Positions 5,969 to 56,890 of a DNA stretch of 64,000 nucleotides are shown here, piece after piece (position 1 is the stretch's first letter; every line of letters starts with the position of its first letter). The DNA is from Elusimicrobiota bacterium (GTDB lineage Bacteria; Elusimicrobiota; Elusimicrobia; UBA1565; UBA9628). The notes below the pieces were generated by a model that saw nothing but the letters and a program-made list of their open reading frames with translations, had not been told where the DNA came from and searched no databases. Made by a program: the position numbers and the translations under genes. The stretch covers positions 19,975 through 83,974 of the forward strand of contig JACRDT010000012.1 of assembly GCA_016212795.1 (NCBI GenBank), written 5' to 3'.

Positions 5969-6274
5969 TTGGAAATCACTGAGATCCGCGTGCATCTTCG
6001 CCATGAGGACAAGCTCAAGGCTTTCGCCACCGTCACGTTCGATAATTGCTTCGTCGTGCGCAACATGAAGATCATCGAGGGCAACAAAGGCCTCATCCTA
6101 TGCATGCCTTCCCGCAAGCTGCCGGACGGGACCTACAAGGACATCGCCCATCCGATCAATGTCCCGTTCCGCAAGCTGCTGGAAGACAAGGTGATGTCCT
6201 GCTATCAGGAAGAAATCAAGAAGGCCGGCAAGAACCCCCCGCCGGCCCCCGGTCCGCACGACGACGGGGAATGA
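5969..6274 (+). CDS. spoVG: Septation protein SpoVG
   Basis: MEITEIRVHL..KLKAFATVTFDNCFVVRNMKIIEGNKGLILCMPSRKLPDGTYKDIAHPIN is a near-canonical SpoVG sequence; TTG start 6 nt after ispE stop. Confidence 0.85.
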   Translation: MEITEIRVHLRHEDKLKAFATVTFDNCFVVRNMKIIEGNKGLILCMPSRKLPDGTYKDIAHPINVPFRKLLEDKVMSCYQEEIKKAGKNPPPAPGPHDDGE

Positions 6275-6336
6275 TGGCACAGCGCGTTCCCCGCGGAAGG
6301 AAGGCCTGATGAAACATTATGTCCCCCCCGGACGGA

Positions 6337-6363
6337 GTCGTCCCCCCCGCGGGGGGGGACGAC
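6337..6363 (+). repeat. Perfect 12-bp G/C homopolymer hairpin (GTCGTCCCCCCC-GCG-GGGGGGGACGAC); variant of the C7-GCG-G7 hairpin family
   Basis: 6337-6348 is the exact reverse complement of 6352-6363 with a GCG loop; lies 63 nt after spoVG stop and 7 nt before tRNA-Gln. Confidence 0.85.
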
Positions 6364-6369
6364 GACATC

Positions 6370-6440
6370 TCCCAGGTGGTGAAACGGTATCACAGCGGAC
6401 TTTGAATCCGTTATTCCTGGTTCAAGTCCAGGCCTGGGAA
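6370..6440 (+). tRNA. tRNA-Gln (anticodon TTG)
   Basis: Hand-folded cloverleaf: acceptor TCCCAGG/CCTGGGA (7 bp), D-arm GTGA-AACGGTA-TCAC, anticodon arm GCGGA-CTTTGAA-TCCGT (T33, anticodon TTG, A37), T-arm CCTGG-TTCAAGT-CCAGG, discriminator A; T-arm and variable region closely match E. coli tRNA-Gln. Confidence 0.8.
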
Positions 6441-9806: not shown

Positions 9807-10379
9807 GTGGCGCTGCGCCTGGTCGTCGGCCTGGGCAACCCCGGGCCGCGCTACGCCAGGACGCGACACAACGCGGGCTTCAGGGTCGTGGAGGCCCTGG
9901 CGGGTGCGGAGTCCCGCTGGCGGGACTTCCGGGGTCTCGGGCGTTGCGTCCGGCGGGAGGGGGTCGTGGTGGCCGAACCGCTGACCTACATGAACGACTC
10001 CGGGAGCTTCGTCTCGGCGCTCTGCCGCTTCCACAAGGTCCAGGCGGCCGAGCTGCTGGTGTGCTTCGACGACATCTCCCTGCCCCTGGGGAGGCTCCGG
10101 CTCAAGGCCGCGGGATCGTCCGGCGGCCAGAAGGGCATGGAGTCCATCATCGCGCACCTGGGGACCGCCGCCATCCCGAGGCTGCGCGTGGGGGTGGGGC
10201 CGCTGCCCCCGGGCTGGGAGGCGACCGACTTCGTCCTGGGGCGCTTCGCGGCGGCCGAGGAGACCGTGTTCGCCCGGGCGGTCCTGGACGCCGCCGACGC
10301 GGTGCGCGTCGCCCTCCAAGACGGGCTCGAGGCGGCGATGAACAGATTTAACTCGCCCCCCCCGCGGGGGGGCGAGTAG
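9807..10379 (+). CDS. pth: Peptidyl-tRNA hydrolase
   Basis: LVVGLGNPGPRYARTRHNAGF, MNDSG, CFDDISLPLG motifs; GTG start; the C-terminal ~8 codons run into the G/C hairpin repeat, so the true 3' end may be slightly variable. Confidence 0.85.
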   Translation: MALRLVVGLGNPGPRYARTRHNAGFRVVEALAGAESRWRDFRGLGRCVRREGVVVAEPLTYMNDSGSFVSALCRFHKVQAAELLVCFDDISLPLGRLRLKAAGSSGGQKGMESIIAHLGTAAIPRLRVGVGPLPPGWEATDFVLGRFAAAEETVFARAVLDAADAVRVALQDGLEAAMNRFNSPPPRGGE

Positions 10380-10465
10380 TGGGGGGGCATATTCTGTTTC
10401 ATAAGGAACTCCTTAATAAAACGGCATCGGCCCCCCGCTACTCGCCCCCCGCGGGGGGGCGAGTG
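10352..10465 (+). repeat. Composite ~115-bp imperfect palindrome built from two head-to-head copies of a ~48-bp unit (CGGCATYGG-Cn-GCTACTCG-C7-GCG-G7-CGAGTGA), each containing a C7-GCG-G7 hairpin
   Basis: 10352-10376 hairpin CTCG-C8-GC-G7-CGAG; 10441-10463 hairpin CTCG-C6-GCG-G7-CGAG; the left half is the reverse complement of the unit; central spacer AAGGAACTCCTT is itself palindromic; related copies at 30786-30826 and 49297-49375. Confidence 0.85.
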
Positions 10466-10500
10466 ACTTGGGGGCGAGTGACTTGGAGGCGAGTGATATG
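10457..10500 (+). repeat. Three tandem ~14-15 bp units G(G/A)GGCGAGTGA(C/T)(T/A)TG immediately 5' of, and overlapping, the ATG of the next gene
   Basis: gggcgagtgacttg / ggggcgagtgacttg / gaggcgagtgatATG read directly from the sequence. Confidence 0.8.
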
Positions 10501-10719
10501 AGCCCAGAGGCGAAGGTCATCGTCGGCATCGTCTTCCTGCTCCTGGGCCTGGGCTACACCTACCGGCCCGGCCTCATCCAGCGCATGAACGCTTTCCTGC
10601 GGGAATACGTGCTCAACGACGCCCGCATCGCGTTGGAGCGCAGGAAGTGGGGGATGTTCTTCCTCCTGATGAGCCTTCTGTTCATCTACATGGGCTACAC
10701 GGCCATGGGCCTGAGATGA
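10498..10719 (+). CDS. Small two-TM membrane protein (73 aa), hypothetical
   Basis: MSPEAKVIVGIVFLLLGLGYTY..FFLLMSLLFIYMGYTAMGLR; stop overlaps pmbA start (ATGA), implying translational coupling. Confidence 0.5.
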   Translation: MSPEAKVIVGIVFLLLGLGYTYRPGLIQRMNAFLREYVLNDARIALERRKWGMFFLLMSLLFIYMGYTAMGLR

Positions 10720-12074
10720 AGCGCGCTCTCGTCGACCTCGCCCTCCGCTCCCTGGACTGGATCAAAAAGCAGTCGGCCAGCCTCGAGGCCGAGGTGTTCC
10801 TGGCCTCGGGCGAGGACCGCGGCATCGAGCTGAGGAACGGGGTGCTCGAAAGCCTCCAGAGCGTCAAGTCCGAGGGCGTGGGGTTGAGGGTGCTCGACGG
10901 CGGCAGGGTGGGCTTCGCCTCGGCGGGGGGGATGGACCTGGAGACGGTCCAGGGCCTCTACCGGAAGGTCGCCGAGCTCATGGAGCACCTCGAGCCCGAC
11001 GACAAGATGGGCTTCCCCGCGGCCGCGAAGGACTTTTCCCCGGAGGAGGCGTTCGAGGCTTCCCTGTGGGACGACTCCTTGTTCGGCGGCAGGCTGGAGG
11101 GCTGGCAGCGGCGCCTCGGCGCGGTCCAGGCGCGGGTCATGGGCGGCGACAAGCGCATCCGGACGGTCCTGCGGCTCGGCTACGGCGAGTCGCGCGGCGA
11201 GGTGGTGGTCGCCAACACGAGAGGGGTCGCGGCCTACGAGAGGGGCTCGTCGGCCACGGTGGGGCTTTCGGTGCTCGCGGCGGGCAAGGATGAGGAGCTC
11301 CAGGTCGGGGCCGCCTTCCAGTCCTCCCGGCGCAAAGCCGATCTCGACCTCGACCGGCTCGCCGACGACGGCGCCCGGCGCGCCACCTCGCTCCTCGACG
11401 CCCGCAAGCTGCCGGGCGGCCGCCGGGCGGTGGTCATCGACCCCTGGGTGGCCGGCGAGCTGCTGGACCTGGTGGCGGAGCTCCTCTGCGCCGACTCGGT
11501 CCAGCGGGGAAAATCCATGCTGGCGGGCAGGATCGGCCGCCGGATCGGCTCGGAGCTCGTCACCATCGTCGATGACCCGAAGATCGCCGGCGGCATCGCC
11601 AGCTCCGTCTACGACGACGAGGGCTGCCCGACCGTCAGGAAGACCATGGTCGAGCGGGGCGTCCTGCGGGACTATTTCTACGACACGTACACGGCCAACA
11701 AGGATGGGCGCCCGTCCAACGCCAGCGCCAGCCGCGGCTCCTACAGGGGCATCCCCGGGCCCGCTCCCTCCAACCTCCACATGGCCGCGGGCTCGACTTC
11801 GCGCGAGAAGGTCATCGCGGACACCAACGACGGCATCCTGGTCCTCGACATCCTGGGGATGCACATGGTCGACCCGGTCGCCGGCGAGATCTCGGTCGGG
11901 GTCTCGGGCATCGCCATCGAAGGCGGGCGCTTGACCCACGCCGTCAAAGGTTGCATGATATCGGGCAACATCCTGGAGCTCCTCGGGGGGATCGACATGG
12001 TCGGTGATGACCTGACGTTCTACGGCGCGCTGGGCTCGCCCACGTTCCGGATATCGGAGATGACGGTGGCGTGA
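10716..12074 (+). CDS. pmbA: TldE/PmbA-family metalloprotease component (cytoplasmic, no HExxxH)
   Basis: 452 aa; PmbA/TldD fold signatures (..GYGESRGEVVVANTRGV.., ..GILVLDILGMHMVDPVAGEISVGVSGIAIEGG..); ATG 10716 overlaps upstream stop. Confidence 0.75.
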   Translation: MKRALVDLALRSLDWIKKQSASLEAEVFLASGEDRGIELRNGVLESLQSVKSEGVGLRVLDGGRVGFASAGGMDLETVQGLYRKVAELMEHLEPDDKMGFPAAAKDFSPEEAFEASLWDDSLFGGRLEGWQRRLGAVQARVMGGDKRIRTVLRLGYGESRGEVVVANTRGVAAYERGSSATVGLSVLAAGKDEELQVGAAFQSSRRKADLDLDRLADDGARRATSLLDARKLPGGRRAVVIDPWVAGELLDLVAELLCADSVQRGKSMLAGRIGRRIGSELVTIVDDPKIAGGIASSVYDDEGCPTVRKTMVERGVLRDYFYDTYTANKDGRPSNASASRGSYRGIPGPAPSNLHMAAGSTSREKVIADTNDGILVLDILGMHMVDPVAGEISVGVSGIAIEGGRLTHAVKGCMISGNILELLGGIDMVGDDLTFYGALGSPTFRISEMTVA

Positions 12075-13950: not shown

Positions 13951-15669
13951 CTACTTCGAGAAGTACGGGTGCCCCAGGACGGGGGGCTTGTCGGGCTTCT
14001 CCTCGGATCTCTTGAGCTCCAGCTCGGCCACCAGGACGTCGGGGTGCACGATGCTGGCGGCGACCTCGCCGCGCGCGTACCGGTAGGGGCCGAGCTGGTA
14101 GTAGTTGAAGACGTGCTCGGCGGAGCCTGCCAGCGCGATGTCCCGCAGGGCCCTCAGGGTCACGCTGGTGAACTGGGCGTTGCGCAAGAGCTCTTCCCGG
14201 CCGTCCTTGACGTAGACCTTGTAGACGAGGGCCGGGGCGGCCAGCATGTCGTTCTCCCCGCGTTTGGCTTCGTCGAAGATGCGCCGGATGACGACCCCGT
14301 AGTCGAGGCCGAAGGCCTTGGCGGCCTTGAGGAGCTCCTCTTTGAGCTCGGCGTCGCCGGCGGTCTTGTCGGCCTTGATGACGAGGTTGCCGATGTGGGC
14401 CGTCGGGAACTCCTCGAAGGCGCCCCGGCCGTGGCCGTTGGAGAGATTTCGCTCCTTCACCGGCGAGCGGCCCATGAGGAGGTCCTTGAGCGTCCCGCGC
14501 TCGATGAGGTCCACCTTCCGGGCGCGGATGCCCTCGTCGTCGACCTTGTAGTACCCGGCCAGGGGGGTGCCCCCGAACTCGCGCAAGGTCGGATCGTCGT
14601 AGACGCTCAGGATGGGCGAGACGACCCTCAGGCCCAGGCGGCTCGCGAAGGACCCCGAGTGGAAGTCGGGCTTCATGCGCTCCTCGTCCTCGAGCCACAG
14701 GGAGCGGGGGAAGGACAGGTTGCGCGCCAGCAACTGGTCGAAGAACTGCCCGGCCGCCTGCCCTTGGAGCAGGACGGGGCCCGTGTAGGGGTCCTCCCAG
14801 TTGGGCGCCGCGGCCAGGGCCGTCAGGTCCTTGGCCAGGGCCTGGGCCTCGGCCTCCAGGGCCTCGTAGGGGGGCAGGGACGCGGGGTCCTGGCGGATGA
14901 CGCGGCGGCGGTCGGAGAGCTTCATGCCGTCGGGCGCCTGGGCGGAGGCTTCCATGTAGACCTCGACGTCGTGGCTGTCCTTCACCACGTCCCGGCTCTG
15001 GCTGTCCGTGACGTAGAGGTGCTGCTGGGTCCAGAACAGGCTGACCTCGGACCGCTGGACGACCGGGTAGGCCTTGAAGACGGCCGAGAGCTTGCGGATG
15101 TTCTCCTCCCAGGCCGCCCGGTCGAAGGAGAGCACCGTCGGGTTCGTCAGGGAGGTGTCCGCCGGATCGGCCGACAGGTCCGGGAGCTCCTCCTTGATGA
15201 GCCGCCGCTGCTTGTAGGCCTTCTTCTTCGAGAGGGTCTCGTGGGCTTCCTTGTAGACCCGGTCCGTCGCCGACCAGAGGTCGAAGCGGAGGGCGTCGTA
15301 GTCGTCGTCGACCACGATCGACTCGGTGTCCGGGCCGAACCGCCAGCCGCCGCGCTCGACGTAGTGGGTGTTGTCGAAGGACGCGTTGCCGACGCGCAGG
15401 TCGACCTTGAGCCTGCGCGAGCGCTCGTCCTGGAAGTCCTTGATCGCGCCGAAGGACCCTTCGACCTCGATGCGGCGGACGTCGCGGGCCGTGTAGGACA
15501 CGAAGTAGGGCGTCCCCAGGCCTCCCATATCGAGGCGGGCCATGGTGCGCTTGAGCTCGTCTTTCATGGCTTTGAGCAGCACCGGGGAGCCCGGGTCCAC
15601 GCCCTCGCCGGAAACGCCGGGCGCGGGCAGGGCCAGGAGGCCGGTGAGGAGGAGTGTCATCGCGGTCAT
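13951..15669 (-). CDS. Secreted TldE/PmbA-like protein (no HExxxH) with signal peptide
   Basis: MTAMTLLLTGLLALPAPGVSG signal peptide; TldD/PmbA C-terminal signatures (..SNGHGRGAFEEFPTAHIGNLVIKADK..); GGGGAGG Shine-Dalgarno; 4-nt overlap with upstream tldD-like gene. Confidence 0.7.
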   Translation of the reverse strand: MTAMTLLLTGLLALPAPGVSGEGVDPGSPVLLKAMKDELKRTMARLDMGGLGTPYFVSYTARDVRRIEVEGSFGAIKDFQDERSRRLKVDLRVGNASFDNTHYVERGGWRFGPDTESIVVDDDYDALRFDLWSATDRVYKEAHETLSKKKAYKQRRLIKEELPDLSADPADTSLTNPTVLSFDRAAWEENIRKLSAVFKAYPVVQRSEVSLFWTQQHLYVTDSQSRDVVKDSHDVEVYMEASAQAPDGMKLSDRRRVIRQDPASLPPYEALEAEAQALAKDLTALAAAPNWEDPYTGPVLLQGQAAGQFFDQLLARNLSFPRSLWLEDEERMKPDFHSGSFASRLGLRVVSPILSVYDDPTLREFGGTPLAGYYKVDDEGIRARKVDLIERGTLKDLLMGRSPVKERNLSNGHGRGAFEEFPTAHIGNLVIKADKTAGDAELKEELLKAAKAFGLDYGVVIRRIFDEAKRGENDMLAAPALVYKVYVKDGREELLRNAQFTSVTLRALRDIALAGSAEHVFNYYQLGPYRYARGEVAASIVHPDVLVAELELKRSEEKPDKPPVLGHPYFSK

Positions 15670-17495
15670 GGGAGCCTCCCCATCCTGTCGTGGTGCGGCG
15701 GCGGCAGTATCGGAGGCTTCTCGGACGCCTTGAACTTCTTCTCCACCTCCACCTCGGTGAGCAGGAGGCTCGGGGCGATGGCCGAGACCGGCACGCTGCC
15801 GGACTCGGCGCCGCAGGTGCCGTTGAAGACGTCGTCGTCGTCCGCCGCGGCGACGATCTTCGTGAACGACGCCAGGGGCGTGCCCACGATGTCCACGCCG
15901 CGGACGACCTCGTCGGGCCTGCCGTCCGGGTAGACCCGGTAGACCAGCAGGGGGATGACCTTGAAGGACTGGGTGGCCCCCCGCCCGGTCATCGTGAACC
16001 CTCCCGAGATGTCGTCGAAGACCAGCCCGTAGGGCTTGCGCTGCAGCTTGATCTGGGCGATGAGCATCTCCCGGAGCTTCGCGTAGGGGACGCTGCGCGA
16101 GGCGGTGACGATGGTGTTGCCCATGCGGGCCACGATCGGGTGCCCGGGCTCCCGCCTGCCGTGCCCGTTGGAGGCCGGGAAGCCCTTGATGGGCGAGCGC
16201 GTCATGAGGAAGCCCTTGAGGATGCCGTTCTCGACCAGGGACACCCGCCGCGCGGGGACGCCCTCGTCGTCGAACTTGTAGAAGCCCCGCAGGAACTGGT
16301 CCTTGAAGCGGGGCAGGGTGGCGTCGTCGGCGACGCTGATGAAGTCCGCGGTGATGGGCTGGCCGAGCTTCTTGGTGAAGGTCTGGCCCTCCCGCTCGAG
16401 CTTCTGGCGGTGCCCCTCGACGCGGTGGCCCATGATCTCATGGAAATAGACCGCCGAGGCGCGGGCGCGGAAGATGGCCGGCCCCGTGTAGGGTTCGACG
16501 AGGGGGGCCTTGGTGAGCGCGTCGAGCTCCCTGGCGGAGCGCTCGATGTCCTGGAGGATCATCGCGTCCGCCGGCAGGCCTTCCAGGGCGTCGGAGTCGT
16601 AGCTCTGATGGCGCATGAGGTCCATGCCGTCGGCGGTCCGGGCCCTCAGGGAGTAGCTCAGGCGCGCGTAGCGGTTGCCGGTCACGACCTCGGTCCTCTC
16701 CGTGTTGACGATGTAGCGGTTGATGGCCTCGGCGTCGAGGCTGACGTGGGAGGCGATGATGAAGGGGTACTTCTTGAAGATGCCCGAGAGGTTCTTGAGG
16801 CGCCGGCGCCAGGCCTCCTTGTCGGGGGCGTGCGGGGGGACGGTCTCGTAGGAACGGGCGGGCTGCTGCAGGGAGAAGTCGTCGGACTTGTCCTCCTCCT
16901 CGGCGGTCACGGCCTTGTTCGTGAGGACCTTGGTGTAGTTCTCGCGGGCGGCCTTGAAGACCCTGTCCGTGTGGAGCCAGATGGCCGACCGGATGGCGTC
17001 CTCGTCGTCGGACTCCGGGAGGGAGGAGGAGCCGCTCCCGTCGCGGTCGAACCACCCGCCCATGCCCTTGACCTGGTGGGTGTTGTCGAACCGCCGGTCG
17101 CCGATGCGGGCGTCGATCGTGAGCTGGCGGGAGTGCCGGTCGGATTCGTAGCGGATGGCGCCGAGCAGGGCGCTCAGGTAGTACTCCTTGTCGTCCTCGA
17201 CCTCGTAGGAGAGGAAATAGAGGGGCGGCTTCTCCGCCAGCTGGAGCGGCTCGAAGGAGCGGCCGAGCTCCTTGCGCAGCGCCCGCAGCAGGGCGTCGTC
17301 GTCCGGCGACCGCGCGCCCTCCAGGGGCGCGCCGGGAGCGGAGGGGACGCTCGCGGGCGGCGCTTCCTTGCGCGAGGCCCCCTCCGGCGAGGGGGCGACG
17401 GCCGGCGCCTTCGGCTGCTGGGACGGCGGGCGCTTGCCTGCCGGCGCGGCGCTCAATGACAGGCACAGCGTGGCGATCCAAAACGGACCAATCAT
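15666..17495 (-). CDS. Secreted TldD-like zinc metalloprotease (HExxxH present)
   Basis: Signal peptide MIGPFWIATLCLSLSAAPA after AGGAGG Shine-Dalgarno; HEIMGHRVEGH motif; ..SNGHGRREPGHPIVARMGNTIV.. family signature; tandem with, and overlapping, the tldE-like gene. Confidence 0.7.
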   Translation of the reverse strand: MIGPFWIATLCLSLSAAPAGKRPPSQQPKAPAVAPSPEGASRKEAPPASVPSAPGAPLEGARSPDDDALLRALRKELGRSFEPLQLAEKPPLYFLSYEVEDDKEYYLSALLGAIRYESDRHSRQLTIDARIGDRRFDNTHQVKGMGGWFDRDGSGSSSLPESDDEDAIRSAIWLHTDRVFKAARENYTKVLTNKAVTAEEEDKSDDFSLQQPARSYETVPPHAPDKEAWRRRLKNLSGIFKKYPFIIASHVSLDAEAINRYIVNTERTEVVTGNRYARLSYSLRARTADGMDLMRHQSYDSDALEGLPADAMILQDIERSARELDALTKAPLVEPYTGPAIFRARASAVYFHEIMGHRVEGHRQKLEREGQTFTKKLGQPITADFISVADDATLPRFKDQFLRGFYKFDDEGVPARRVSLVENGILKGFLMTRSPIKGFPASNGHGRREPGHPIVARMGNTIVTASRSVPYAKLREMLIAQIKLQRKPYGLVFDDISGGFTMTGRGATQSFKVIPLLVYRVYPDGRPDEVVRGVDIVGTPLASFTKIVAAADDDDVFNGTCGAESGSVPVSAIAPSLLLTEVEVEKKFKASEKPPILPPPHHDRMGRLP

Positions 17496-17577
17496 GTGTC
17501 CTCCTGCAGACGGTAGATTGTAGTACACACGGCAAGGAGTCCGCTAGTTGACAGTCGGGTGGCATAGGAGGCATCAT

Positions 17578-18729
17578 GTGCGCGCGATGCGAATCCGGTG
17601 GCGCGGCGGGCTGGCGGCGGTCGCGGCGCTGGCGTTGGCCGGGTGCACGTCGCGGGCGGATCTGGCGGAGCGCGCCTACGGGCGGGGCGACTACGCCGAG
17701 GCCATGGGGCTGGCGCGGCCCCTGGGCGAAAAGGGCGACCCCAGGATGCAGAACCTCGTGGGGCTGATGTCCGCCAAGGGGGAGGGCGTGCCCGCCGACC
17801 CGACCCAGGGCGCCGTCTGGTACCGCCGGGCGGCGGAGCAAGGGCACCTCTCGGCCGCGATCAACCTGGGGGTGCTCTACGCGGACGGCCGGGGCGTCAC
17901 CAAGGACGGCGCCGAGGCGCTGAGGTGGCTCCGGGTGGCGGCGGACAAGGGCGAGGAAGTGGCCCAGAAGCTCATCGGGGACCTCTATCTCGACGGCGAT
18001 TGCGTCCCGAGGGACGACGCCGAGGCCGCCCGCTGGTACAAGAAGGCCGTGGACCACGAGTACAGCCCGTTCGACAAGGGCTACGCGCCGGCCCAGCATC
18101 GCCTGGGCCTGCTCTACGAGCGCGGCTGGGGCGTCCCCCGGTCCGGCGCGGAGGCGGCCAAGTGGATGCGCAAGGCCGCGGAGCAGGGCAACGCCGGCGC
18201 GCAGGTCGACCTCGGGCTGCTCTACCAGGGAAAGTCCGGCGTCAAGCGCGACTACGCCGAGGCGGCGCGCTGGTTCGGCAAGGCCGCGCTCGCGGGCGAC
18301 GCCTCCGCGCAGAACTTCCTCGGGGTCATATACGAGAGGGGCAACGGCGTGGCCAAGGACGAGACCGCGGCGTTGGCCTGGTACCTGAAGGCGGCGGACC
18401 AGGACCATCGGCTCGCCCAATACAACGCCGGCGTGCTCTATGACGAGGGGCGCGGCATCCGCCAGGACCTCGGCCAGGCGGTCGCCTGGCTGCGCAAGTC
18501 CGCGGAGGGAGGCGAGACCCGCGCTCAGAACCGCCTCGGGATGTCGTATTTCAAGGGGCGGGGGGTCCCGCGCGACTTGACGCTGGCCTATGTCTGGTGC
18601 TGGCGCGCCGGCAAGAAGGGCCTGACGGTCGGGCTGGAGAACGCGGCGGTCATCAAGAAGGCCATGACGGCCAAGCAGTCGGCCGAGGCCCGGAAGATGA
18701 TCGAGCTCGTCGACAAGAAGCGCCCGTGA
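17578..18729 (+). CDS. Sel1-like repeat (SLR) lipoprotein
   Basis: Lipobox LALAGCTS; about 8 Sel1 repeats (..AEAARWYKKAAEQGHAGAQ..LG.LY..G.GV..D); GTG 17578 is 6 nt after AGGAGG (ATG 17587 is an alternative start). Confidence 0.7.
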   Translation: MRAMRIRWRGGLAAVAALALAGCTSRADLAERAYGRGDYAEAMGLARPLGEKGDPRMQNLVGLMSAKGEGVPADPTQGAVWYRRAAEQGHLSAAINLGVLYADGRGVTKDGAEALRWLRVAADKGEEVAQKLIGDLYLDGDCVPRDDAEAARWYKKAVDHEYSPFDKGYAPAQHRLGLLYERGWGVPRSGAEAAKWMRKAAEQGNAGAQVDLGLLYQGKSGVKRDYAEAARWFGKAALAGDASAQNFLGVIYERGNGVAKDETAALAWYLKAADQDHRLAQYNAGVLYDEGRGIRQDLGQAVAWLRKSAEGGETRAQNRLGMSYFKGRGVPRDLTLAYVWCWRAGKKGLTVGLENAAVIKKAMTAKQSAEARKMIELVDKKRP

Positions 18730-21759: not shown

Positions 21760-24339
21760 ATGTCCAACGCGCCGACCCTCAAGGACCCCGTCGCCGTCCT
21801 GCGCCGCTCCCGGCTGATGCAGTCCTTGCCGGAGGCCGGGCTGAAAGCCGTGTCGGCCGCCATGCGGCCCAGGGCGTTCGACCCTGGCCGGCTGCTCATC
21901 AAGCAAGGGGAGCCGGGCGGCTGCTTCTACCTCATCGCGTCCGGCTTGGTCGAGGTGCAGGTGCGCACGGAGGGGGGCACGACGGCCGTCGTGGCCACGC
22001 TGCGCGAGGGGGATTGCCTCGGGGAGATGTCCCTCCTGTCGGGCGACGTCACCTCGGCGGACGCGCGGGCTCTCGAGCGGACCGAGACCCTGGCGCTGGA
22101 AGCCGGCGCCTTCGACGCCCTCCTGCAGGCCCATCCCGAGCTGCTGCGCGAGTTCGTCCGCATCCTGTCGCGCCGGCTGGGCGCGACCGACGTCGCGGTG
22201 GGGCTGGCCCGGGAGGACGAGAAGGCCCTCGCCCAACTGCTGCGGGAAGGGAAGGCCGACCAGTACGGCGAGCTGATCGGCAAGCACGCGACGATGACAG
22301 CGCTGAACCGGGAGATCGACAAGCACGCGTCGTCGGATGACCCTTTGCTCGTCCTGGGCGAGCGCGGCACGGGCAAGGAGATCGTGGCCAGGCTGGCCCA
22401 CCTCCGGGGGCCCCGCAAGGACGCGCCGATCGTCAGCGTGCAGTGCGACCAGATCAGCGAGACGCCCTGGGGCGACAAGCTCTTCGGCCTCCACCACAAG
22501 GGCGCCGGCACCCCGCGCTCCCGCGGCGTGTGCTACATGACCCTGGCGGAAGGCGGGACGCTCGTCCTCAAGGATGTCGAGCTGCTCCCCGTCCCCATCC
22601 AGGAGCGGCTGGCGGAGTTCATCGAGAAGAACCCGGGGGCCAAGGCCGGCCTGCGGTTCATCGCGACCTCCCGGGCGCGCCTGGTCGAGCTGGCCCAGAC
22701 CGGGAAGGTGTCCGAGTCGCTGGCCCGGGCCTTCGCGGGCGGCGCCATCGTCGTGCCGCCGCTGCGGGACCGCAAGCGGGACATCGGCGAGCTGGCCCGC
22801 CATTTCGTCCGCCGGCACGCCGAGCGGCTCAACAAGCCGGTCCAGGGCCTCAGCGACCAGGCCATGACCAAGCTGGTCTCCCACGACTACCGCGGCGCCA
22901 ACATCCAGGAGCTCAAGGAAGCCCTGGAGCGCGCCGTGGTCCTCACGGACGACAAGACGGTCGGCGCCGAGGAGATCTTCCTCGGCCATCCCGCCAAGGC
23001 GCGGCGGCACATCTTCAACTTCCTGTCCCTCAAGACCGCGCTGGTGCGCCGGGCGCTGGTGGTGGTGCCGAGGATGGTGCGCCCCTTGAGCGCGGTCTTC
23101 TTCGCCTTCATCCTCTACCAGTGCTTCGCCGGGACCCCGCGGGACGGCGGCAACCTGGGCGTCGTGCTGGTGTGGGCGGTCTGGTGGCCGGCGCTGGCCC
23201 TGTCGTTCTTCGTCGTGGGGCGCCTGTGGTGCGCGGTCTGCCCGATGGCCCTGGCCGGGTCCGGAGCGCAGCGGGTCCGGGGGCTCAAGTGGCGCATCCC
23301 GGCGTGGCTGAAAGACCACGACACCTATCTCGCGCTGGCGGGCTTCACCGGCATCATCTGGCTCGAGGAGGCCACGGGGATGCGGCACGCGCCCGTCGCC
23401 ACGGGGCTGTTCCTGCTCTCCATCCTGGCGGGCGCCGCGACCGCGAGCGTCCTCTTCCCCCGTCGGACCTGGTGCCGGCATCTCTGCCCCCTGGGCTTCT
23501 TCGCCGGACTGTGCTCGGAGTCGGCCATGCTCGAGCTGCGGCCGACGGCGGACATCTGCTCGGCCAAGTGCACGGGCCATGCGTGCTACAAGGGCGACGA
23601 GCGGGTCGCGGGGTGCCCCGTGTTCAACCACGTGATGTTCATGGACTCGAACCAGCACTGCGTCCTGTGCATGAACTGCGTGCAGACCTGCCCCAACGAC
23701 TCGGTCCAGCTGAACCTGCGGCTGCCCGCCTCCGAGCTGTGGTCGCGGCCGAACGTGGAGAAGGGCGCGGCCAGGTTCTTCGCCGTGCTGCTGGGCCTTC
23801 TGCCGTGCCTGGCCTTCATCCAGCATTGGGATGCGACGCTCCAGGCGGGGTGGGCGTGGCTCCTGGCGGGGCACCGCACCGCGTCCCTGACCATCATCCT
23901 CGGCCTGGGCGTCGCGGCGCCTCTGGCCCTGCTCGAGTTGATCGTCCGCCCGCTCCACGACCCCGAGGACCCCTTGCCGGCCGAGCGGGTCTGGCGCAAG
24001 GTCCTGGCGTGGGGGCCCCTGGTGACGGCCGGGTTCGCGTGCTATCAGCTCGCCTATCTCCCCGGCATGGGCAACCTGCGGCTCGCCCTGGGGTTCCTGC
24101 CGCTCGAGGGAGGAGGGGTCCGGTCGCTGTGGCTGCCGGTGCTGGGCTTGAGCCGGGTCGCGATCATGGCCGCCGGGCTGATGACCTCCGCGGCCGTCAT
24201 GTGGAAGCTCGCGCATGACGCCAAGGGGAGCGGCGGCAAGAGGCGGCTCTGGGGGCATCTGCTGAACCTGGCCTGCGCCACGGCTTACGCGGCGGCCCTC
24301 ACCCTGCTCATGGTCAGACCCAGGTGGCTGGGATTATGA
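21760..24339 (+). CDS. Three-module protein: cNMP-binding (CAP effector) domain + sigma54-activator-type AAA+ ATPase lacking GAFTGA + NapH/NosR-like polytopic membrane polyferredoxin
   Basis: cNMP motifs GEPGGCFYLIASG..GEMSLL; Walker A GERGTGKE; bEBP core (..IVVPPLRDRKRDIGELARHF..DYRGANIQELKEALERAV) with the GAFTGA position reading GAGTPRS; no HTH; C-terminal TM region with CAVCP and CRHLCP (CX2-3CP) motifs plus one atypical cluster CSAKCTGHAC..GCP and one canonical 4Fe-4S cluster CVLCMNCVQTCP. Confidence 0.75.
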   Translation: MSNAPTLKDPVAVLRRSRLMQSLPEAGLKAVSAAMRPRAFDPGRLLIKQGEPGGCFYLIASGLVEVQVRTEGGTTAVVATLREGDCLGEMSLLSGDVTSADARALERTETLALEAGAFDALLQAHPELLREFVRILSRRLGATDVAVGLAREDEKALAQLLREGKADQYGELIGKHATMTALNREIDKHASSDDPLLVLGERGTGKEIVARLAHLRGPRKDAPIVSVQCDQISETPWGDKLFGLHHKGAGTPRSRGVCYMTLAEGGTLVLKDVELLPVPIQERLAEFIEKNPGAKAGLRFIATSRARLVELAQTGKVSESLARAFAGGAIVVPPLRDRKRDIGELARHFVRRHAERLNKPVQGLSDQAMTKLVSHDYRGANIQELKEALERAVVLTDDKTVGAEEIFLGHPAKARRHIFNFLSLKTALVRRALVVVPRMVRPLSAVFFAFILYQCFAGTPRDGGNLGVVLVWAVWWPALALSFFVVGRLWCAVCPMALAGSGAQRVRGLKWRIPAWLKDHDTYLALAGFTGIIWLEEATGMRHAPVATGLFLLSILAGAATASVLFPRRTWCRHLCPLGFFAGLCSESAMLELRPTADICSAKCTGHACYKGDERVAGCPVFNHVMFMDSNQHCVLCMNCVQTCPNDSVQLNLRLPASELWSRPNVEKGAARFFAVLLGLLPCLAFIQHWDATLQAGWAWLLAGHRTASLTIILGLGVAAPLALLELIVRPLHDPEDPLPAERVWRKVLAWGPLVTAGFACYQLAYLPGMGNLRLALGFLPLEGGGVRSLWLPVLGLSRVAIMAAGLMTSAAVMWKLAHDAKGSGGKRRLWGHLLNLACATAYAAALTLLMVRPRWLGL

Positions 24340-28589: not shown

Positions 28590-30770
28590 ATGACGCTCTG
28601 CAGACGCTTCCGGCTCGTCGCATGGGTGCTGGCCCTTGGCGCCATGGGCGGCCCGGGAGCGACGGCCCAGGACCGGTGGCCGGACCTCGCCGCGCCCGCC
28701 AAGGCCGTGGGCGGGGGCGGGCACGACGCGGCCGTGGTGGTGGGCGTGGAGGATTACCTCCTCGTGGCCGACGTGCCGGGGGCCGAGGCCAACGCCAAGG
28801 CGTGGTACGACTACTTCACCGAGACGCGCGGGCTGCCGGTCCAGAACGTCAAGCTCGTGACCGGCGTGGACGCCACCCGCGAGGAGATGCTCGCCGCGGT
28901 GCGCAGCGCGGCCGGCAAGGCCGGGCAGGATGGGACGCTGTGGTTCGTGTTCATCGGGCACGGGGCGCCGTCCAAGGACGGCAAGGACGGGCTCCTGGTG
29001 GCCGTGGACGCCCAGCAGAAGGCCGCCACCCTCCAGGAGAGGAGCCTCAAGCGCTCGGAGCTCCTCAAGGCGCTCTCTGAGAGCCGCGCCGGCTCCATCC
29101 GGGTCGTGCTCGACGCGTGCTTCTCCGGCAGGCTGGCGGACGGCGGCTCGATCGCGCCGGGGCTTCAGCCCCTGGTCACGGTATCGATGGCCGATCCCAC
29201 CGACGCCAGGATGGTGGTCCTGACGGCAGCCAGAGGCAACCAGTTCGCCGGCGCCCTGCCTGGAGCCAGGCGACCCGCGTTCAGCTACCTGGTGCTGGGG
29301 GGGCTTCGCGGCTGGACCGGGAAGGCCACGGTGACTGCCGGGGACCTGTGGCGCTACGCCGTCGACGCCCTGGAGGCTACCCTGCGCGGCAGGGACCAGT
29401 GGCCCGAACTGATCGGCCGCCAGGACGCGGTGGTCGGCGCTGCCGCGGGCGAGAAGGGCCCGAACCTCGCCGGCCTGGCCAAAGCCACGGCAGGGGCAGG
29501 GGCGCAGGATGAGATGTTCCGGGTCTCGAACCTGCCGCGGGTCCCCAAGGCCCAGGCGCCCGCGGCCGTCGCGGACATGGCCGGCGGGGCGGATTTCCGC
29601 AACCTGGACGTGGAGGCGCTGGGGCGCTACGACGAAGCCACGAAGTTCGACGAGGGCGAGGCTTCTCCCGAGGAGAAGGCGTCCAAATGGCTCGAGCTGG
29701 CCAAGAGCGCGCCGCAGTTCGCCGGGAAAGCCGAGGCGAGGGCGGCCCAATGGGACCGCTACGCCCAGGAGCTCGCCGCGGGCCAGGAGGCGCGTCAGAA
29801 GCGCGCCGAGGCCATGGACAGGGACTGGGAGAAGTTGGGCAAGCTGTTGGCCATGAGGGTGGTGCCCGACGCGGACAAGAAGCGCTGGGCGGCGGCGTTC
29901 GTCGAGGCGTACGGCAGGACCTCGCGGGAGAACCCCTATGTCGCGGACCTGGCCAGGCACCTGCCGCCGGGGACGGTCAAGGTCGAGCCCGGAGCCAAGG
30001 CGTCCGCCGGCGGCCGCGCCGGGTCGGTCCAGGCCGGCAAAGCCGGCGTCGAGTGGGTGAGGATCCCGGGCGGGACCCTCGCGATGGGCGCCGACGACCG
30101 GCCGGAGACGAAGCCCCGGCATCCCGTGACGGTCAAGGCCTTCCAGCTGGCGAGGACCGAGGCGACCAACAAGCAGTACCGCGCCTGCGTCGAGGCCGGG
30201 GCCTGCTCCCCCGCGCATGCCTCGGACGGGACATGCCGGGTGTGGGACGGCGGCCAATGGGCTCTCGGCAGCCTGGCGGCCTCGTTCCAGGCCGACGACC
30301 ACCCCGTGGTGTGCGTGGACTGGGGCCAGGCGAAAGCCTTCGCCGAATGGGCCGGGGGGAGGCTCCCGAGCGAGGCGGAGTGGGAGCACGCGGCCCGCGG
30401 CGCCGGCAAGGAGCGGGCGTACCCCTGGGGCGACGAGGAGCCCACGTGCGAGCGGGCCGTGATGAGCCAGGACGACAACGGCTGCGCGAGGAACGCGACG
30501 TGGCCCGTGTGCTCGAAGGCCGCCGGGAACACGGCGCAGGGGCTCTGCGACATGGCGGGCAACGTCGGGGAGTGGACGCAGGACTGGTATCACGCCTCGT
30601 ACGACGGCGCGCCGGCCGACGGTCTCGCCTGGGAGAGGCCAGCGTCCGCGGCCCGGGTCGTCCGCGGCGGGGGCTGGGGCAACGACGCCGACGGCGTCCG
30701 GGCCGCGTACCGCGTCGGCTACGACCCGGGCGAGCTCAGCGACTACCTCGGCGTGCGTCCCGCCCGCTGA
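28590..30770 (+). CDS. Secreted caspase-like (peptidase C14) domain fused to a formylglycine-generating-enzyme (FGE-sulfatase/SUMF1-like) domain
   Basis: Signal peptide; caspase His/Cys dyad contexts FVFIGHGAP and RVVLDACFSG; C-terminal FGE fold (WVRIPGGTLAMGADD..HPVVCVDWGQAKAFAEWAGGRLPSEAEWEHAARG..GNVGEWTQDWY). Confidence 0.8.
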   Translation: MTLCRRFRLVAWVLALGAMGGPGATAQDRWPDLAAPAKAVGGGGHDAAVVVGVEDYLLVADVPGAEANAKAWYDYFTETRGLPVQNVKLVTGVDATREEMLAAVRSAAGKAGQDGTLWFVFIGHGAPSKDGKDGLLVAVDAQQKAATLQERSLKRSELLKALSESRAGSIRVVLDACFSGRLADGGSIAPGLQPLVTVSMADPTDARMVVLTAARGNQFAGALPGARRPAFSYLVLGGLRGWTGKATVTAGDLWRYAVDALEATLRGRDQWPELIGRQDAVVGAAAGEKGPNLAGLAKATAGAGAQDEMFRVSNLPRVPKAQAPAAVADMAGGADFRNLDVEALGRYDEATKFDEGEASPEEKASKWLELAKSAPQFAGKAEARAAQWDRYAQELAAGQEARQKRAEAMDRDWEKLGKLLAMRVVPDADKKRWAAAFVEAYGRTSRENPYVADLARHLPPGTVKVEPGAKASAGGRAGSVQAGKAGVEWVRIPGGTLAMGADDRPETKPRHPVTVKAFQLARTEATNKQYRACVEAGACSPAHASDGTCRVWDGGQWALGSLAASFQADDHPVVCVDWGQAKAFAEWAGGRLPSEAEWEHAARGAGKERAYPWGDEEPTCERAVMSQDDNGCARNATWPVCSKAAGNTAQGLCDMAGNVGEWTQDWYHASYDGAPADGLAWERPASAARVVRGGGWGNDADGVRAAYRVGYDPGELSDYLGVRPAR

Positions 30771-30785
30771 GGCCTGCGGCATGTG

Positions 30786-30826
30786 CCCCCCCCCGCTACT
30801 CGCCCCCCCGCGGGGGGGGCGAGTGA
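30786..30826 (+). repeat. Copy of the ~48-bp unit: C9-GCTACTCG-C7-GCG-G8-CGAGTGAC (hairpin 30799-30823)
   Basis: Read directly; 15 nt after the caspase-FGE stop and 46 nt before speD ATG. Confidence 0.85.
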
Positions 30827-30871
30827 CAGCTTGACACCGGGGCCGCGAGCTAGGCATGATGTCTGCCTGGC

Positions 30872-31810
30872 ATGTTCTTCGAGGGACGAGAGAAGAAGGT
30901 GGAGATCGCCTTGGCGCCGGGGAACCCTCCCCTGCGCGGCCGGGGGCGCGCGTACTGGGCGCGCATCGTGGCGGCCTCGCGCGCCCGGATCATCTCGGAG
31001 CTGTCCAACGACCGGATGGACGCGTACCTGCTCTCCGAGTCGAGCCTCTTCGTCACCGACCAGTGGCTCACCATGATCACGTGCGGCCGCACGGACCTGG
31101 CCGCCGCCGTCCTGCGGATGGCCGACGACCTGGGCGTCGAGAACCTCCAGTACCTGATTTACGAGCGCAAGAACGCCTTCTTCCAGGAGTTCCAGCCCAC
31201 CAACTTCCTCGACGACCTCAAGAAGCTCTCGCGGAGGATCCCGGGCCAATCCTACCGCTTCGGCGACGGGGACGACCACCACGTCTTCCTCTTCCACCTC
31301 GACCGGCCCCACCGGGCGGACCCCGACGACCGTACCCTCGAGATCCTCATGCACGGCATCGACGCGGCCGCCGCGCGCACCTTCATGGCCGGTCCCCAGC
31401 ACCGAGGGAAGTTCATCAGGGAGCGGTCCGGGGTGTGGTCCATCCTCCCGGGCTTCGAGGTCGACGACCACCTTTTCGAGCCCATGGGCTATTCGCTCAA
31501 CGCCGTCCGCGGGGCGAAGTACTACACGATCCACGTCACCCCGCAGAAGGTCGGCTCGTACGTGAGCTTCGAGACCAACCTGGTGGGGGCCGGCGCCAAC
31601 AAGACCGTCCGCCGGGTCCTGGACATCTTCAAGCCGCGCTCCTGCGACATCATCCTCTTCCAGCCCCTGGGCCAGCGGCGGGACATCCGGTGCTCCTACC
31701 TGCTCAAGCGGGCCGTCCGCCAGCACCTTTCCAACGGCTACCGGGTGACCTTCGACCACCGCTTCAGGCCCGTCAGGGTCCCGGCCCCGGCCGTCGAGGT
31801 GCTCCTGTGA
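30872..31810 (+). CDS. speD: S-adenosylmethionine decarboxylase proenzyme, eukaryotic-type (class II)
   Basis: MFFEGREKKVEI N-terminus and self-processing site LSESSLFV (cf. eukaryotic AdoMetDC ..YVLSESSMFV); 312 aa. Confidence 0.75.
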   Translation: MFFEGREKKVEIALAPGNPPLRGRGRAYWARIVAASRARIISELSNDRMDAYLLSESSLFVTDQWLTMITCGRTDLAAAVLRMADDLGVENLQYLIYERKNAFFQEFQPTNFLDDLKKLSRRIPGQSYRFGDGDDHHVFLFHLDRPHRADPDDRTLEILMHGIDAAAARTFMAGPQHRGKFIRERSGVWSILPGFEVDDHLFEPMGYSLNAVRGAKYYTIHVTPQKVGSYVSFETNLVGAGANKTVRRVLDIFKPRSCDIILFQPLGQRRDIRCSYLLKRAVRQHLSNGYRVTFDHRFRPVRVPAPAVEVLL

Positions 31811-56768: not shown

Positions 56769-56890
56769 TATACCCCGCCCTTGGCCGGCCAGCAAGGCCG
56801 CTGGCTGGCATATGTTCTGGCCGGCGGAAGCCGTCCGGCGATCAGAAAGGTTCGGGTGGAACTTTCTTGCCGCCTCGATCGTATGCATAG

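Follow-up and report, generated by a model that had tools for sequence, protein, structure and literature searches.

The question raised by the junction between pth and a small membrane-protein gene, in the 64-kb window analysed here (the whole stretch of DNA, from a metagenome-assembled genome, or MAG, of the Elusimicrobia, with a G+C content of 69%), is what kind of sequence sets two homopolymer hairpins head to head between neighbouring genes, and why related hairpins recur elsewhere in the window. The original prediction left a choice between an intergenic repeat family resembling repetitive extragenic palindromic (REP) sequences or transposable elements of the miniature inverted-repeat kind (MITEs), and a structured cis-regulatory element of the 5' untranslated region (UTR). 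The hairpins are likely to belong to a family of short (~40-73 nt), non-autonomous interspersed palindromic repeats, confined to one clade of uncultured high-GC Elusimicrobia, and the element is probably mobile.

The repeat unit has a length of about 70 nt once its left arm and first C-run are included, and not the 48 bp or so first proposed. It consists of a left arm of variable sequence, (A/G)AGGAR..CCTtATGAAACGGCATyrG, then a first C-run of 6-9 nt, GCT, the hairpin ACTCG-C6-8-G(C/T)G-G6-8-CGAGT, and a final GA(C/T); the conserved portion of the left arm is AGGAG..CCTtATGAAACGGCAT, and the first C-run lies 8 nt upstream of the hairpin. In an alignment of 18 non-redundant copies, a 40-nt core with a G+C content of at least 80% is invariant, while the left arm varies. 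The three runs measure 6-6-6 or 7-7-7 (totals of 21 or 24) in 15 of the 18 copies, the two classes differing by exactly 3 nt, and the outliers include a C9 in the window copy U2, a C8 in the copy at locus L006 and an odd total in that of L024 (L numbers denote loci outside the window). The foot sequences G-CTAC-TCG...CGA-GTGA are present in all 18 canonical copies, and stop codons are found at both hairpin feet, as GAG-TGA on one strand and GAG-TAG on the other. With the ACTCG/CGAGT flanks, the stems reach 11-13 bp and -22 to -28 kcal/mol when the hairpins are folded alone, and are perfect in the canonical copies, apart from a single bulged U in U3.

A search with a covariance model built from this alignment recovered, from four intergenic sites in the window and nowhere else in it, four full units together with a diverged unit and a partial hairpin:

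10400-10470, forward strand: U1, full copy of the 6-6-6 class (cmsearch 75.5 bits; hairpin -25.1 kcal/mol), with left arm AAGGAACTCCTTAATAAAACGGCATCGG, C6 at 10431-10436, GCT, hairpin at 10440-10464, and GA.
10345-10417, reverse strand: U4, full copy (cmsearch 75.5 bits, E 1.3e-20; hairpin -27.4 kcal/mol), which reads on the forward strand as ACTCG at 10351-10355, C8 GC G7, CGAGT at 10373-10377, and then G7 at 10381-10387, the complement of the unit's first C-run.
49310-49382, forward strand: U3, full copy of the 7-7-7 class (cmsearch 72.6 bits).
49325-49378, forward strand: short open reading frame (ORF) of U3, encoding MKRHWPPRYSPPRGGVE, with its stop 14 nt before the ATG at 49393.
30771-30826, forward strand: U2, with a truncated left arm CGGCATGTG (cmsearch match 30788-30830, 55.6 bits; hairpin -28.4 kcal/mol), C9 at 30786-30794 and hairpin at 30798-30824.
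6294-6369, forward strand: diverged full-length copy in the spacer between spoVG and tRNA-Gln (cmsearch 24.3 bits, E 1.5e-5; -27.4 kcal/mol), with ATG at 6309, C7 at 6323-6329, a 12-nt spacer, and the hairpin GTCGT C7 GCG G7 ACGAC at 6337-6363.
49293-49319, forward strand: U5, partial unit (14 bits; -17.2 kcal/mol), with CTACTCG followed by the hairpin GCCTCCCC GCG GGGGAGGC at 49299-49317.

All of the hairpins and repeat units originally listed are present in the sequence, although their description needs some correction. The loop, described as GCG throughout, is so in some copies and GTG at 49362-49364, and the stems, described as 7-12 bp of pure C and G, include CCTCCCC/GGGGAGG at 49299-49317 and extend to 11-13 bp with their flanks. 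The stem flanks of the diverged copy at 6294-6369 are unlike ACTCG/CGAGT, and the pairing is nonetheless kept. A regular-expression scan located hairpins of the unit type (C5+, short loop, G5+) at 6342-6358, 10356-10372, 10445-10459, 30803-30819 and 49355-49370. Chance is no explanation for the repetition, given that the flank CTACTCGCC occurs five times in the window against 0.5 expected, a count that none of 100 shuffles reaches.

The window copies are not the only ones, as pattern scans recovered others in Elusimicrobia MAGs and metagenome contigs. A fixed-length pattern with 3 mismatches matched nothing, because the run lengths vary, and was replaced by a gapped one. The genome scan, based on a palindrome-only pattern with one genome per species, returned 12 loci, nine of which belong to Elusimicrobia MAGs of 63-71% G+C, from several independent projects and at least five MAGs. 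The MAGs that carry the element are the one encoding MBI5209571.1, JACQWX01, JACRNU01, JACRDR01, JBGFSC01 and JAPLKK01. All nine of these loci carry the first C-run and GCTACTCG, and several the AACGGCAT arm, while the three from other phyla are bare hairpins in which the flanks are absent. The scan of JGI metagenomes with the pattern CCCCCCNCTACTCGCCCCCC, for which 10 of the 17 matches were unrelated poly-C DNA, added five more distinct contigs (L017, L018, L024, L028 and L029), together with duplicates of L005. Across the public genome and metagenome scans, the 40-nt core was found, base for base, only in high-GC Elusimicrobia, mostly at different positions, and the viral contigs scanned contained no copy. 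Copy numbers seen amount to six in the 64-kb window and at least 2-4 in fragments of other MAGs. An assembly or poly-G sequencing artefact is ruled out by the position of the unit in mid-contig in at least six independent projects. A literature search on Elusimicrobia repeats found no interspersed repeat family described.

Orthologous sites differ in the presence of the element. At the junction of pth and the membrane-protein gene, no element is found in L031 and L032, where the genes overlap directly as GTGA; L030 and L033 carry a degenerate sense copy (25 and 37 bits), and the window two canonical copies and a tandem repeat. Given that the Pth protein of L033, which has a copy, is 84% identical to that of L031, which has none, and that these two are closer to each other than either is to the window, the pattern at this junction is not one simple gain, on the evidence of this single gene. 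The copy between spoVG and tRNA-Gln is absent in L031 and L033, where the orthologous spacer is ~70 nt shorter, and these spacers are too diverged to align in search of a target-site duplication (TSD). The DUF1646 orthologues in L034 and L035 have no upstream copy, and the 31 kb concerned contain none at all.

In degenerate copies the hairpin is preserved by double changes, such as CCTCCCC/GGGGAGG in L030, L033 and U5, and GTCGT/ACGAC at 6337-6363, and the C-G to U-A double change in U5 is common to one L030 copy (L030a) and L033. Overall, 93.6% of the cells are paired and seven are changed on both sides, and none of 500 shuffles reaches the covariation observed. Identical canonical copies across species, older copies that decay in place, and empty orthologous sites are together the signature of a propagating repeat, and not of a regulatory motif specific to one locus.

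The context of 23 copies was tallied from Pfam, from the reading of the junctions, and from ORFs supported by their G+C content at third codon positions (GC3). Eleven are sense copies that lie immediately before a gene or tRNA, and eight are antisense between co-directional genes, with the upstream stop 1-3 nt from the hairpin or with the gene reading into the element, as do pth in the window and tsaD in L024. One lies between convergent genes that both end inside it (L030 5695-5767), two are intragenic, and one is partial (U5). The sense unit of L008 is the entire 70-nt spacer between rpmF and plsX; in L007, between ribH and nusB, the stop codon of ribH shares bases with the ATG of the unit, in the form ATGA; and sense copies are also found between rplO and secY in L011, and before a dNK-family gene in L002. 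The hairpin foot is 3-6 nt from the starts of nusB, plsX, secY and the dNK-family gene, and these starts are supported by Pfam profiles that begin at residues 1-7. The downstream genes are unrelated to each other, and include secY, nusB, plsX, the dNK-family kinase, speD, the DUF1646 transporter and a tRNA.

The two intragenic copies do not fit the original view of the family as intergenic, and both are in frame. In the lpxI gene of L018, a short form without any left arm places the core in a loop of the LpxI_C domain, where ...RAGEI-TRPPRGGASSGG-ALVVVK stands against ...RAGELA-R-GKGG-LVVVK in the 86% identical protein P0241, and the match to the LpxI_C profile runs across the insertion (E 8e-44). 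In the DNA, the filled site has a net gain of 21 nt over the empty site of L036, with ~16-18 nt of the native sequence replaced; no direct repeat flanks the copy, a weak result from this one filled/empty pair, which differs by ~17% in DNA sequence. Microhomology or gene conversion, and not cut-and-paste, may have brought this copy in. The empty site GAGCTCGCCCGCGGCAAAGGCGGGC (L036:1105-1265, compared with L018:380-560) itself resembles a compressed core (ACTCGCC..CGCGG..GGGC).

The second intragenic copy, in a preA-like gene of L005, is a long form with a 15-nt repeat between two 4Fe-4S motifs, flanked on both sides by sequence with a GC3 of 0.86/0.87 in one frame. This sequence was assembled independently in L013 and L016, and positions 1-50 of the Fer4_7 profile span 71 residues of the protein. 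The element adds 7-24 residues to LpxI and the PreA-like protein, and it is an in-frame palindromic repeat in unrelated coding genes, with the domain intact on both sides, as are the Rickettsia palindromic elements (RPEs). A third candidate, L024, was ruled out: there, tsaD simply continues across the element as far as a stop codon within the left arm.

In the sense orientation, the consensus contains what appears to be a small cistron. A sequence resembling the Shine-Dalgarno (SD) motif, AGGAG, precedes an ATG by 6-9 nt, and ~16 codons, encoding peptides such as MKRHQPPRYSPPRGGGE or MKQTVRPPATRPPRGGE, are open through both C-runs and the hairpin, up to a stop located 2 nt beyond it (GAG-TGA or GAG-TAG). 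This mini-ORF is intact, and ends at such a stop, in L002, L007, L008, L011, L028 and U3, and its start is degenerate (ATA) in U1. The 3' arm of U5 supplies a GGAGG 8 nt upstream of the ATG of the U3 mini-ORF. The next gene starts 1-14 nt after the mini-ORF stop or overlaps it (UAG-C-AUG, UGA-CCCC-AUG), and, before secY, nusB and plsX, nothing resembles an SD motif except the G-run that the hairpin's 3' arm contains. The degenerate copies of L030 and L033 are set apart by an indel of 9 nt; their ORF uses another frame and is still open, with ATGA/GTGA overlaps at both ends. The anatomy of a coupling cassette, with an ORF through an SD-hiding structure and a stop near the next start, can be read from the sequences of L007, L008, L011, L002, L006, L030, L033 and U3. 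The position of the SD-like G-run agrees with the RNA-unfolding and termination-reinitiation models, which are established for translational coupling (PMC12548453).

The junction at which the question arose lies in the gene order spoVG, tRNA-Gln, glmU, prs, L25 gene, pth, a 73-aa membrane-protein gene and pmbA. Two units occupy 10345-10470 head to head, and the region 10335-10515 folds at -108.6 kcal/mol (z -8.3). The features between the units and downstream are as follows:

10403-10414: junction AAGGA-AC-TCCTT (AAGGAACTCCTT), common to both units.
10455-10496, forward strand: tandem repeat of the 3' hairpin arm, with a period of 15 nt, 2.8 copies and the consensus GGGGGCGAGTGACTT (Tandem Repeats Finder, TRF).
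10498-10719, forward strand: small membrane-protein gene (73 aa), then pmbA at 10647-12074.

The junction, which had been called a palindromic spacer, is a palindrome of 5+5 nt around a central AC that is not palindromic, and the tandem repeat, which had been given units of 14 bp, is present with the longer period. On each strand, the junction provides an SD-like AAGGAR 6-8 nt upstream of the unit's ATG or ATA, and AAGGAGTTCCT is also found upstream of the single forward unit at the orthologous site of L033. The pth gene (9807-10379) reads through the left hairpin to a TAG at 10377-10379, and the last eight residues (SPPPRGGE) of the Pth C-terminus NRFNSPPPRGGE, as deposited in MBI5209571.1, are encoded by the hairpin, while Pth orthologues end in ...AMNEYN or in unrelated short tails. 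The NCBI entries MBI5209571.1 and MBI5209601.1, which lie on one contig of an Elusimicrobia MAG, match the window's Pth and DUF1646 proteins with 99-100% identity. C-terminal tails encoded by the element are likewise found on TsaD (L024) and a Trm112-like protein (L030). The tandem repeat is in frame with the downstream ORF, and its last copy places a GGAGG (10485-10489) 8 nt before the ATG at 10498, outside the hairpin and with no complementary C-run, that is, as a freed SD sequence. An analogous 15-nt repeat, GGGGGCGAGTGACATG, is found in L005.

How such a family might spread and persist can be outlined from these observations. New copies would arise by copying into new sites, most likely by a hairpin-directed single-strand mechanism or by microhomology-templated replacement, routes that are favoured because neither terminal inverted repeats (TIRs) nor a target duplication are found. 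The copies would survive where harm is small, in very short operon spacers, at gene ends and in the surface loops of proteins, since the element is "translation-compatible", with length classes separated by 3 nt, open frames where these are used, stops at both feet and a mini-cistron in the sense orientation. Ribosomes on the mini-cistron, or on an upstream gene that reads in, would melt the hairpin of -25 kcal/mol and terminate beside the downstream start, relaying the coupling, whereas in the antisense orientation the element amounts to a stable hairpin, placed 1-3 nt behind a stop codon. At the pth locus, the left unit contributes the last eight Pth codons, and the 15-nt triplication sets a free GGAGG before the membrane-protein ATG.

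Sense copies very probably affect the translation of the next gene. A coupling relay by the mini-cistron is proposed only tentatively, from the arrangement of its signals, and the same caution applies to the possible, though doubtful, view of the element as a "translation-transparent" mobile cassette, in which a portable SD-ATG-mini-ORF-stop surrounds an SD-hiding hairpin and a selfish repeat has been shaped by the ribosome, and not by a transposase alone. If this were true, the relay would let the cassette settle in the narrowest spacers that essential operons have (rplO|secY, ribH|nusB and rpmF|plsX), lengths in multiples of 3 nt with an open frame would let it settle in protein loops as well, and the equal run lengths (C1 = C2 = G) would be maintained by selection on the reading frame. 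A C+.G-C triple helix or an alternative pairing of the first C-run was also considered for these equal lengths and set aside: the 3-nt frame argument covers the same fact, and the first C-run decays uncompensated in old copies.

A number of observations weigh against a mobile family shaped by translation. The native lpxI site CTCGCCCGCGG is core-like, and the copy there might derive from local expansion or conversion, and not from insertion. No transposase, Y1 or reverse-transcriptase (RT) domain was found among the window genes scanned against Pfam (including domains like PF01797), no second canonical copy was detected by the covariance model in ~78 kb of other loci, which had been fetched via the element itself, and three relatives have no copy in 8-34 kb. 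Intact mini-ORFs also occur in copies in antisense contexts (L028 and U4), and may owe their intact state to descent from the consensus, and not to selection at the site; the mini-ORF is intact in eight of ten sense copies and two of five antisense ones, a difference that is not significant, and, by chance, most frames of GC-rich DNA are open. Conservation of the peptide is lacking between L030 and L033, which differ by ~7 non-synonymous and 2 synonymous changes, and a 12-bp G-C stem at a ribosome-binding site could be simply deleterious or silencing.

The alternative that survives best, although it is unlikely, is a genuine REP/REPIN system, with a single-copy RAYT (an IS200/IS605-like Y1 transposase) elsewhere in the genome and the pair at 10345-10470 as the mobile REPIN. 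The GC-rich hairpin with its conserved foot tetranucleotides (CTAC...GTGA), the absence of TIRs and TSDs, and the inverted doublet that folds into one long hairpin with the energy given above would all fit, and singletons occur together with a doublet, as outlined for REP/REPIN populations (PMC3116915, PMC3337134). However, REP sequences have a conserved GTAG (GTRG) tetranucleotide directly 5' of the hairpin foot and an imperfect, bulged stem (PMC3479197), whereas the 5' side of the present element is CTAC, GTAG being confined to the other strand, where it lies 3' of the hairpin and partly within the stem, and its canonical stems are perfect. In addition, the doublet is the only one among ~20 loci, all of the others being singletons, some copies lie inside genes, the core is common to several species while REP sequences are usually lineage-specific, and no Y1 transposase domain is present among the window genes scanned. 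The original proposal of a REP- or MITE-like family holds for the dispersal, the two orientations, and the presence or absence at orthologous sites; its specific hallmarks, the 5' GTAG of REP sequences and the TIRs of MITEs, are missing, as is a TSD at the one filled/empty pair that could be aligned.

A dedicated cis-regulatory 5' leader, in which a leader peptide and an SD-sequestering hairpin act as an attenuator, a thermometer or a riboswitch-like switch, was the other half of the original prediction and is now very unlikely as the primary nature of the element. It would account for the sense copies 3-14 nt before gene starts with the G-run as the only SD-like sequence, for the conserved SD, ATG and short Pro/Gly-rich ORF through the hairpin, and for the first C-run of L033, which is predicted to pair with the real GGGAGG SD sequence. 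It would not account for an orientation that is unfixed in the tally above, with about half of the copies antisense to their neighbours and two within coding sequences, for downstream genes with no common function, or for the orthologous sites that are empty in L031, L032, L034, L035 and L036. The stem, at -22 to -28 kcal/mol, is far too stable for a thermometer, no conserved unpaired region resembling a ligand pocket is apparent, and the core is invariant and does not covary. The search of Rfam that had been proposed gave no family at gathering score other than tRNA-Gln, and in E-value mode the region 10300-10550 gave only sub-threshold matches of the composite hairpin to models resembling miRNA precursors (THF-II at 21.6 against a cut-off of 41, and 6C at 15.7 against 47). 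A leader peptide that senses amino acids (Pro/Gly/Arg, or dependent on EF-P) was rejected as the primary function on the grounds of the unrelated downstream genes and of a peptide that differs between the orthologous copies of L030 and L033.

It is more improbable still that the hairpins are ordinary terminators or mRNA-stabilising 3' ends, made alike by selection that converged on strong G-C stems. The stability of the hairpins is very high, the antisense copies and the convergent copy of L030 lie 0-3 nt after stop codons, and REP-type hairpins reportedly stabilise upstream mRNA in work on malE-malF in E. coli. The original prediction had already doubted a simple terminator, and the doubt is well founded: no U-tract comes after the hairpin, and no terminator-like site was detected at 10250-10600 or 49150-49450. 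What comes next after the hairpins is GA(C/T)... on one strand and AGC-G7 on the other. Copies lie within the rplO-secY, ribH-nusB and rpmF-plsX operons, in a divergent spacer and in genes, and convergence cannot produce 40 invariant nucleotides that include the non-stem flanks and the first C-run. A scan for sigma-70 promoters found nothing at the 10352-10500 locus or at 49150-49450.

Least credible of all is the use of the C/G homopolymers as phase-variation switches that toggle the expression of neighbours or a C-terminal frame, since the slippage-prone tracts of 6-9 identical bases, the outlier lengths listed above, and a frame change that would alter the mini-ORF stop or the Pth tail are offset by run lengths that are tightly constrained in 15 of the 18 copies, and by neighbours that are housekeeping, and not surface or contingency, genes. 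An integron attC site, a DNA uptake sequence, a retron or diversity-generating retroelement, and a CRISPR array were dropped on anatomy, as there are no R'/R'' cores, the copy density is too low, and the window has no RT or cas genes.

The genes that flank the remaining window copies are as follows:

5969-6274: spoVG, upstream of the copy at 6294-6369.
6370-6440: tRNA-Gln, directly after that copy.
30768-30770: stop codon of a gene with an FGE-sulfatase domain, 1-5 nt upstream of U2.
30872: start of speD, downstream of U2.
47733-49220, reverse strand: amino-acid permease gene, divergent from the DUF1646 gene across U5 and U3.
49393-50430, forward strand: DUF1646 gene, the start of which is backed by the 100% identical NCBI protein MBI5209601.1 (P0121).

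The surroundings of these copies show other features. A scan of 30700-30950 found a promoter-like match, TTGACA-18-CATGAT, just upstream of the speD ATG, and an 8-bp hairpin at 30849-30871 abuts that start codon with its 3' end; both are outside U2. The speD gene belongs to the eukaryote-type S-adenosylmethionine decarboxylase (AdoMetDC) family (PF01536), which seems unusual for a bacterium. In the 172-nt spacer between the permease and DUF1646 genes (49221-49392), a TATAAT at 49281-49286 lies just before the first hairpin, and a syntenic relative (L035, 9399-10000) has, between the same two genes, a 177-aa gene that is missing in the window.

Three PmbA/TldD-family genes are found within 7 kb (10647-12074; 13951-15669, reverse strand; 15666-17528, reverse strand), an arrangement that is kept in L030-L033, and the trio adjoins a Peptidase_C39 gene in L031 and L032, which hints at a cluster for peptide maturation. 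The sole other hairpin of the C5+/G5+ type in the window, at 17377-17396 (CCCCCTCC GGCG AGGGGG; scan match 17378-17395), is unrelated to the unit; it overlaps the 5' end of the last of these genes, which is TldD-like, and ends just before a 19-nt spacer to a divergent Sel1-repeat gene (17548-18729, forward strand). Further away, ARAGORN reported an 80-nt tRNA-Phe at 55734-55813, with no Rfam match at gathering score and inside an ORF of 1383 aa with TPR and protein-kinase domains (53040-57191, reverse strand), which is probably a false positive. At 21760-24339, a protein resembling a sigma-54 activator combines an N-terminal cyclic-nucleotide-binding domain with a C-terminal 4Fe-4S domain (Fer4_5), a combination that we did not expect.

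As an interspersed palindromic repeat, the element behaves as selfish "junk" DNA across which the ribosome can read, rather than as a dedicated gene switch, and, once recognised as dispersed, it need no longer tempt annotators to propose a riboswitch that controls speD, pmbA or the DUF1646 transporter. It does affect annotation, through spurious or altered protein ends such as the Pth ...SPPPRGGE and the tails of TsaD and the Trm112-like protein, and both gene calls and the assembly of MAGs are likely to break at its homopolymer runs. The polymorphism in its presence or absence is a lineage marker, useful for the tracking of strains and populations in groundwater metagenomes. If the relay is true, a selfish element would have been shaped to be invisible to the translation of operons, and would offer a compact, portable coupling part for synthetic operons.

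Among the known systems, the REP, BIME and REPIN sequences of Enterobacteria, Pseudomonas and Stenotrophomonas share with the element the GC-rich hairpins in operon spacers, in both orientations, with conserved foot bases, an occasional inverted doublet and no TIRs or TSDs. The element differs from them not only in the missing 5' GTAG and bulge, but also in its homopolymer stem, its upstream C-run, the left arm with SD and ATG, its intragenic copies, and a core that crosses species. The RPEs are ~100-150 bp long, AT-rich and confined to Rickettsia, whereas the element has 40-73 nt, is G+C-rich and is mostly intergenic. In behaviour, the only basis for this comparison, the two are alike as palindromic repeats that are found both between genes and in frame, in the tolerant loops of unrelated housekeeping proteins (PMC10969869).

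The Correia/NEMIS, ERIC, RUP and BOX MITEs, and the terminator-like SPRITE of pneumococcus, are likewise small, non-autonomous interspersed repeats, and bacterial MITEs and SPRITE are co-transcribed with their neighbours, can change how stable an mRNA is or how it is translated, and in some cases join ORFs together (PMC10969869, PMC3184786). Unlike the MITEs, the element is much shorter, has no known parent insertion sequence (IS), shows no TSD at the single, diverged lpxI pair, and has no TIRs, its left end (AGGAG..CCTtATGAAACGG) and right end (..CGAGTGAY) being non-complementary. The closest parallels to the mini-cistron are found in translational coupling and leader-peptide attenuation (rpmI-rplT, the MS2 coat and lysis genes, and the ermC type), where an ORF also runs through a hairpin that hides the ribosome-binding site, with the stop and start near each other or overlapping as ATGA/GTGA (PMC12548453; PMC6728339). 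Those cases are locus-specific structures that evolved in place, whereas the cassette described here, known from its sequence, is repeated and portable. Within the known class of small interspersed palindromic repeats, the new features are the homopolymer stem, the three-run architecture and the built-in mini-cistron.

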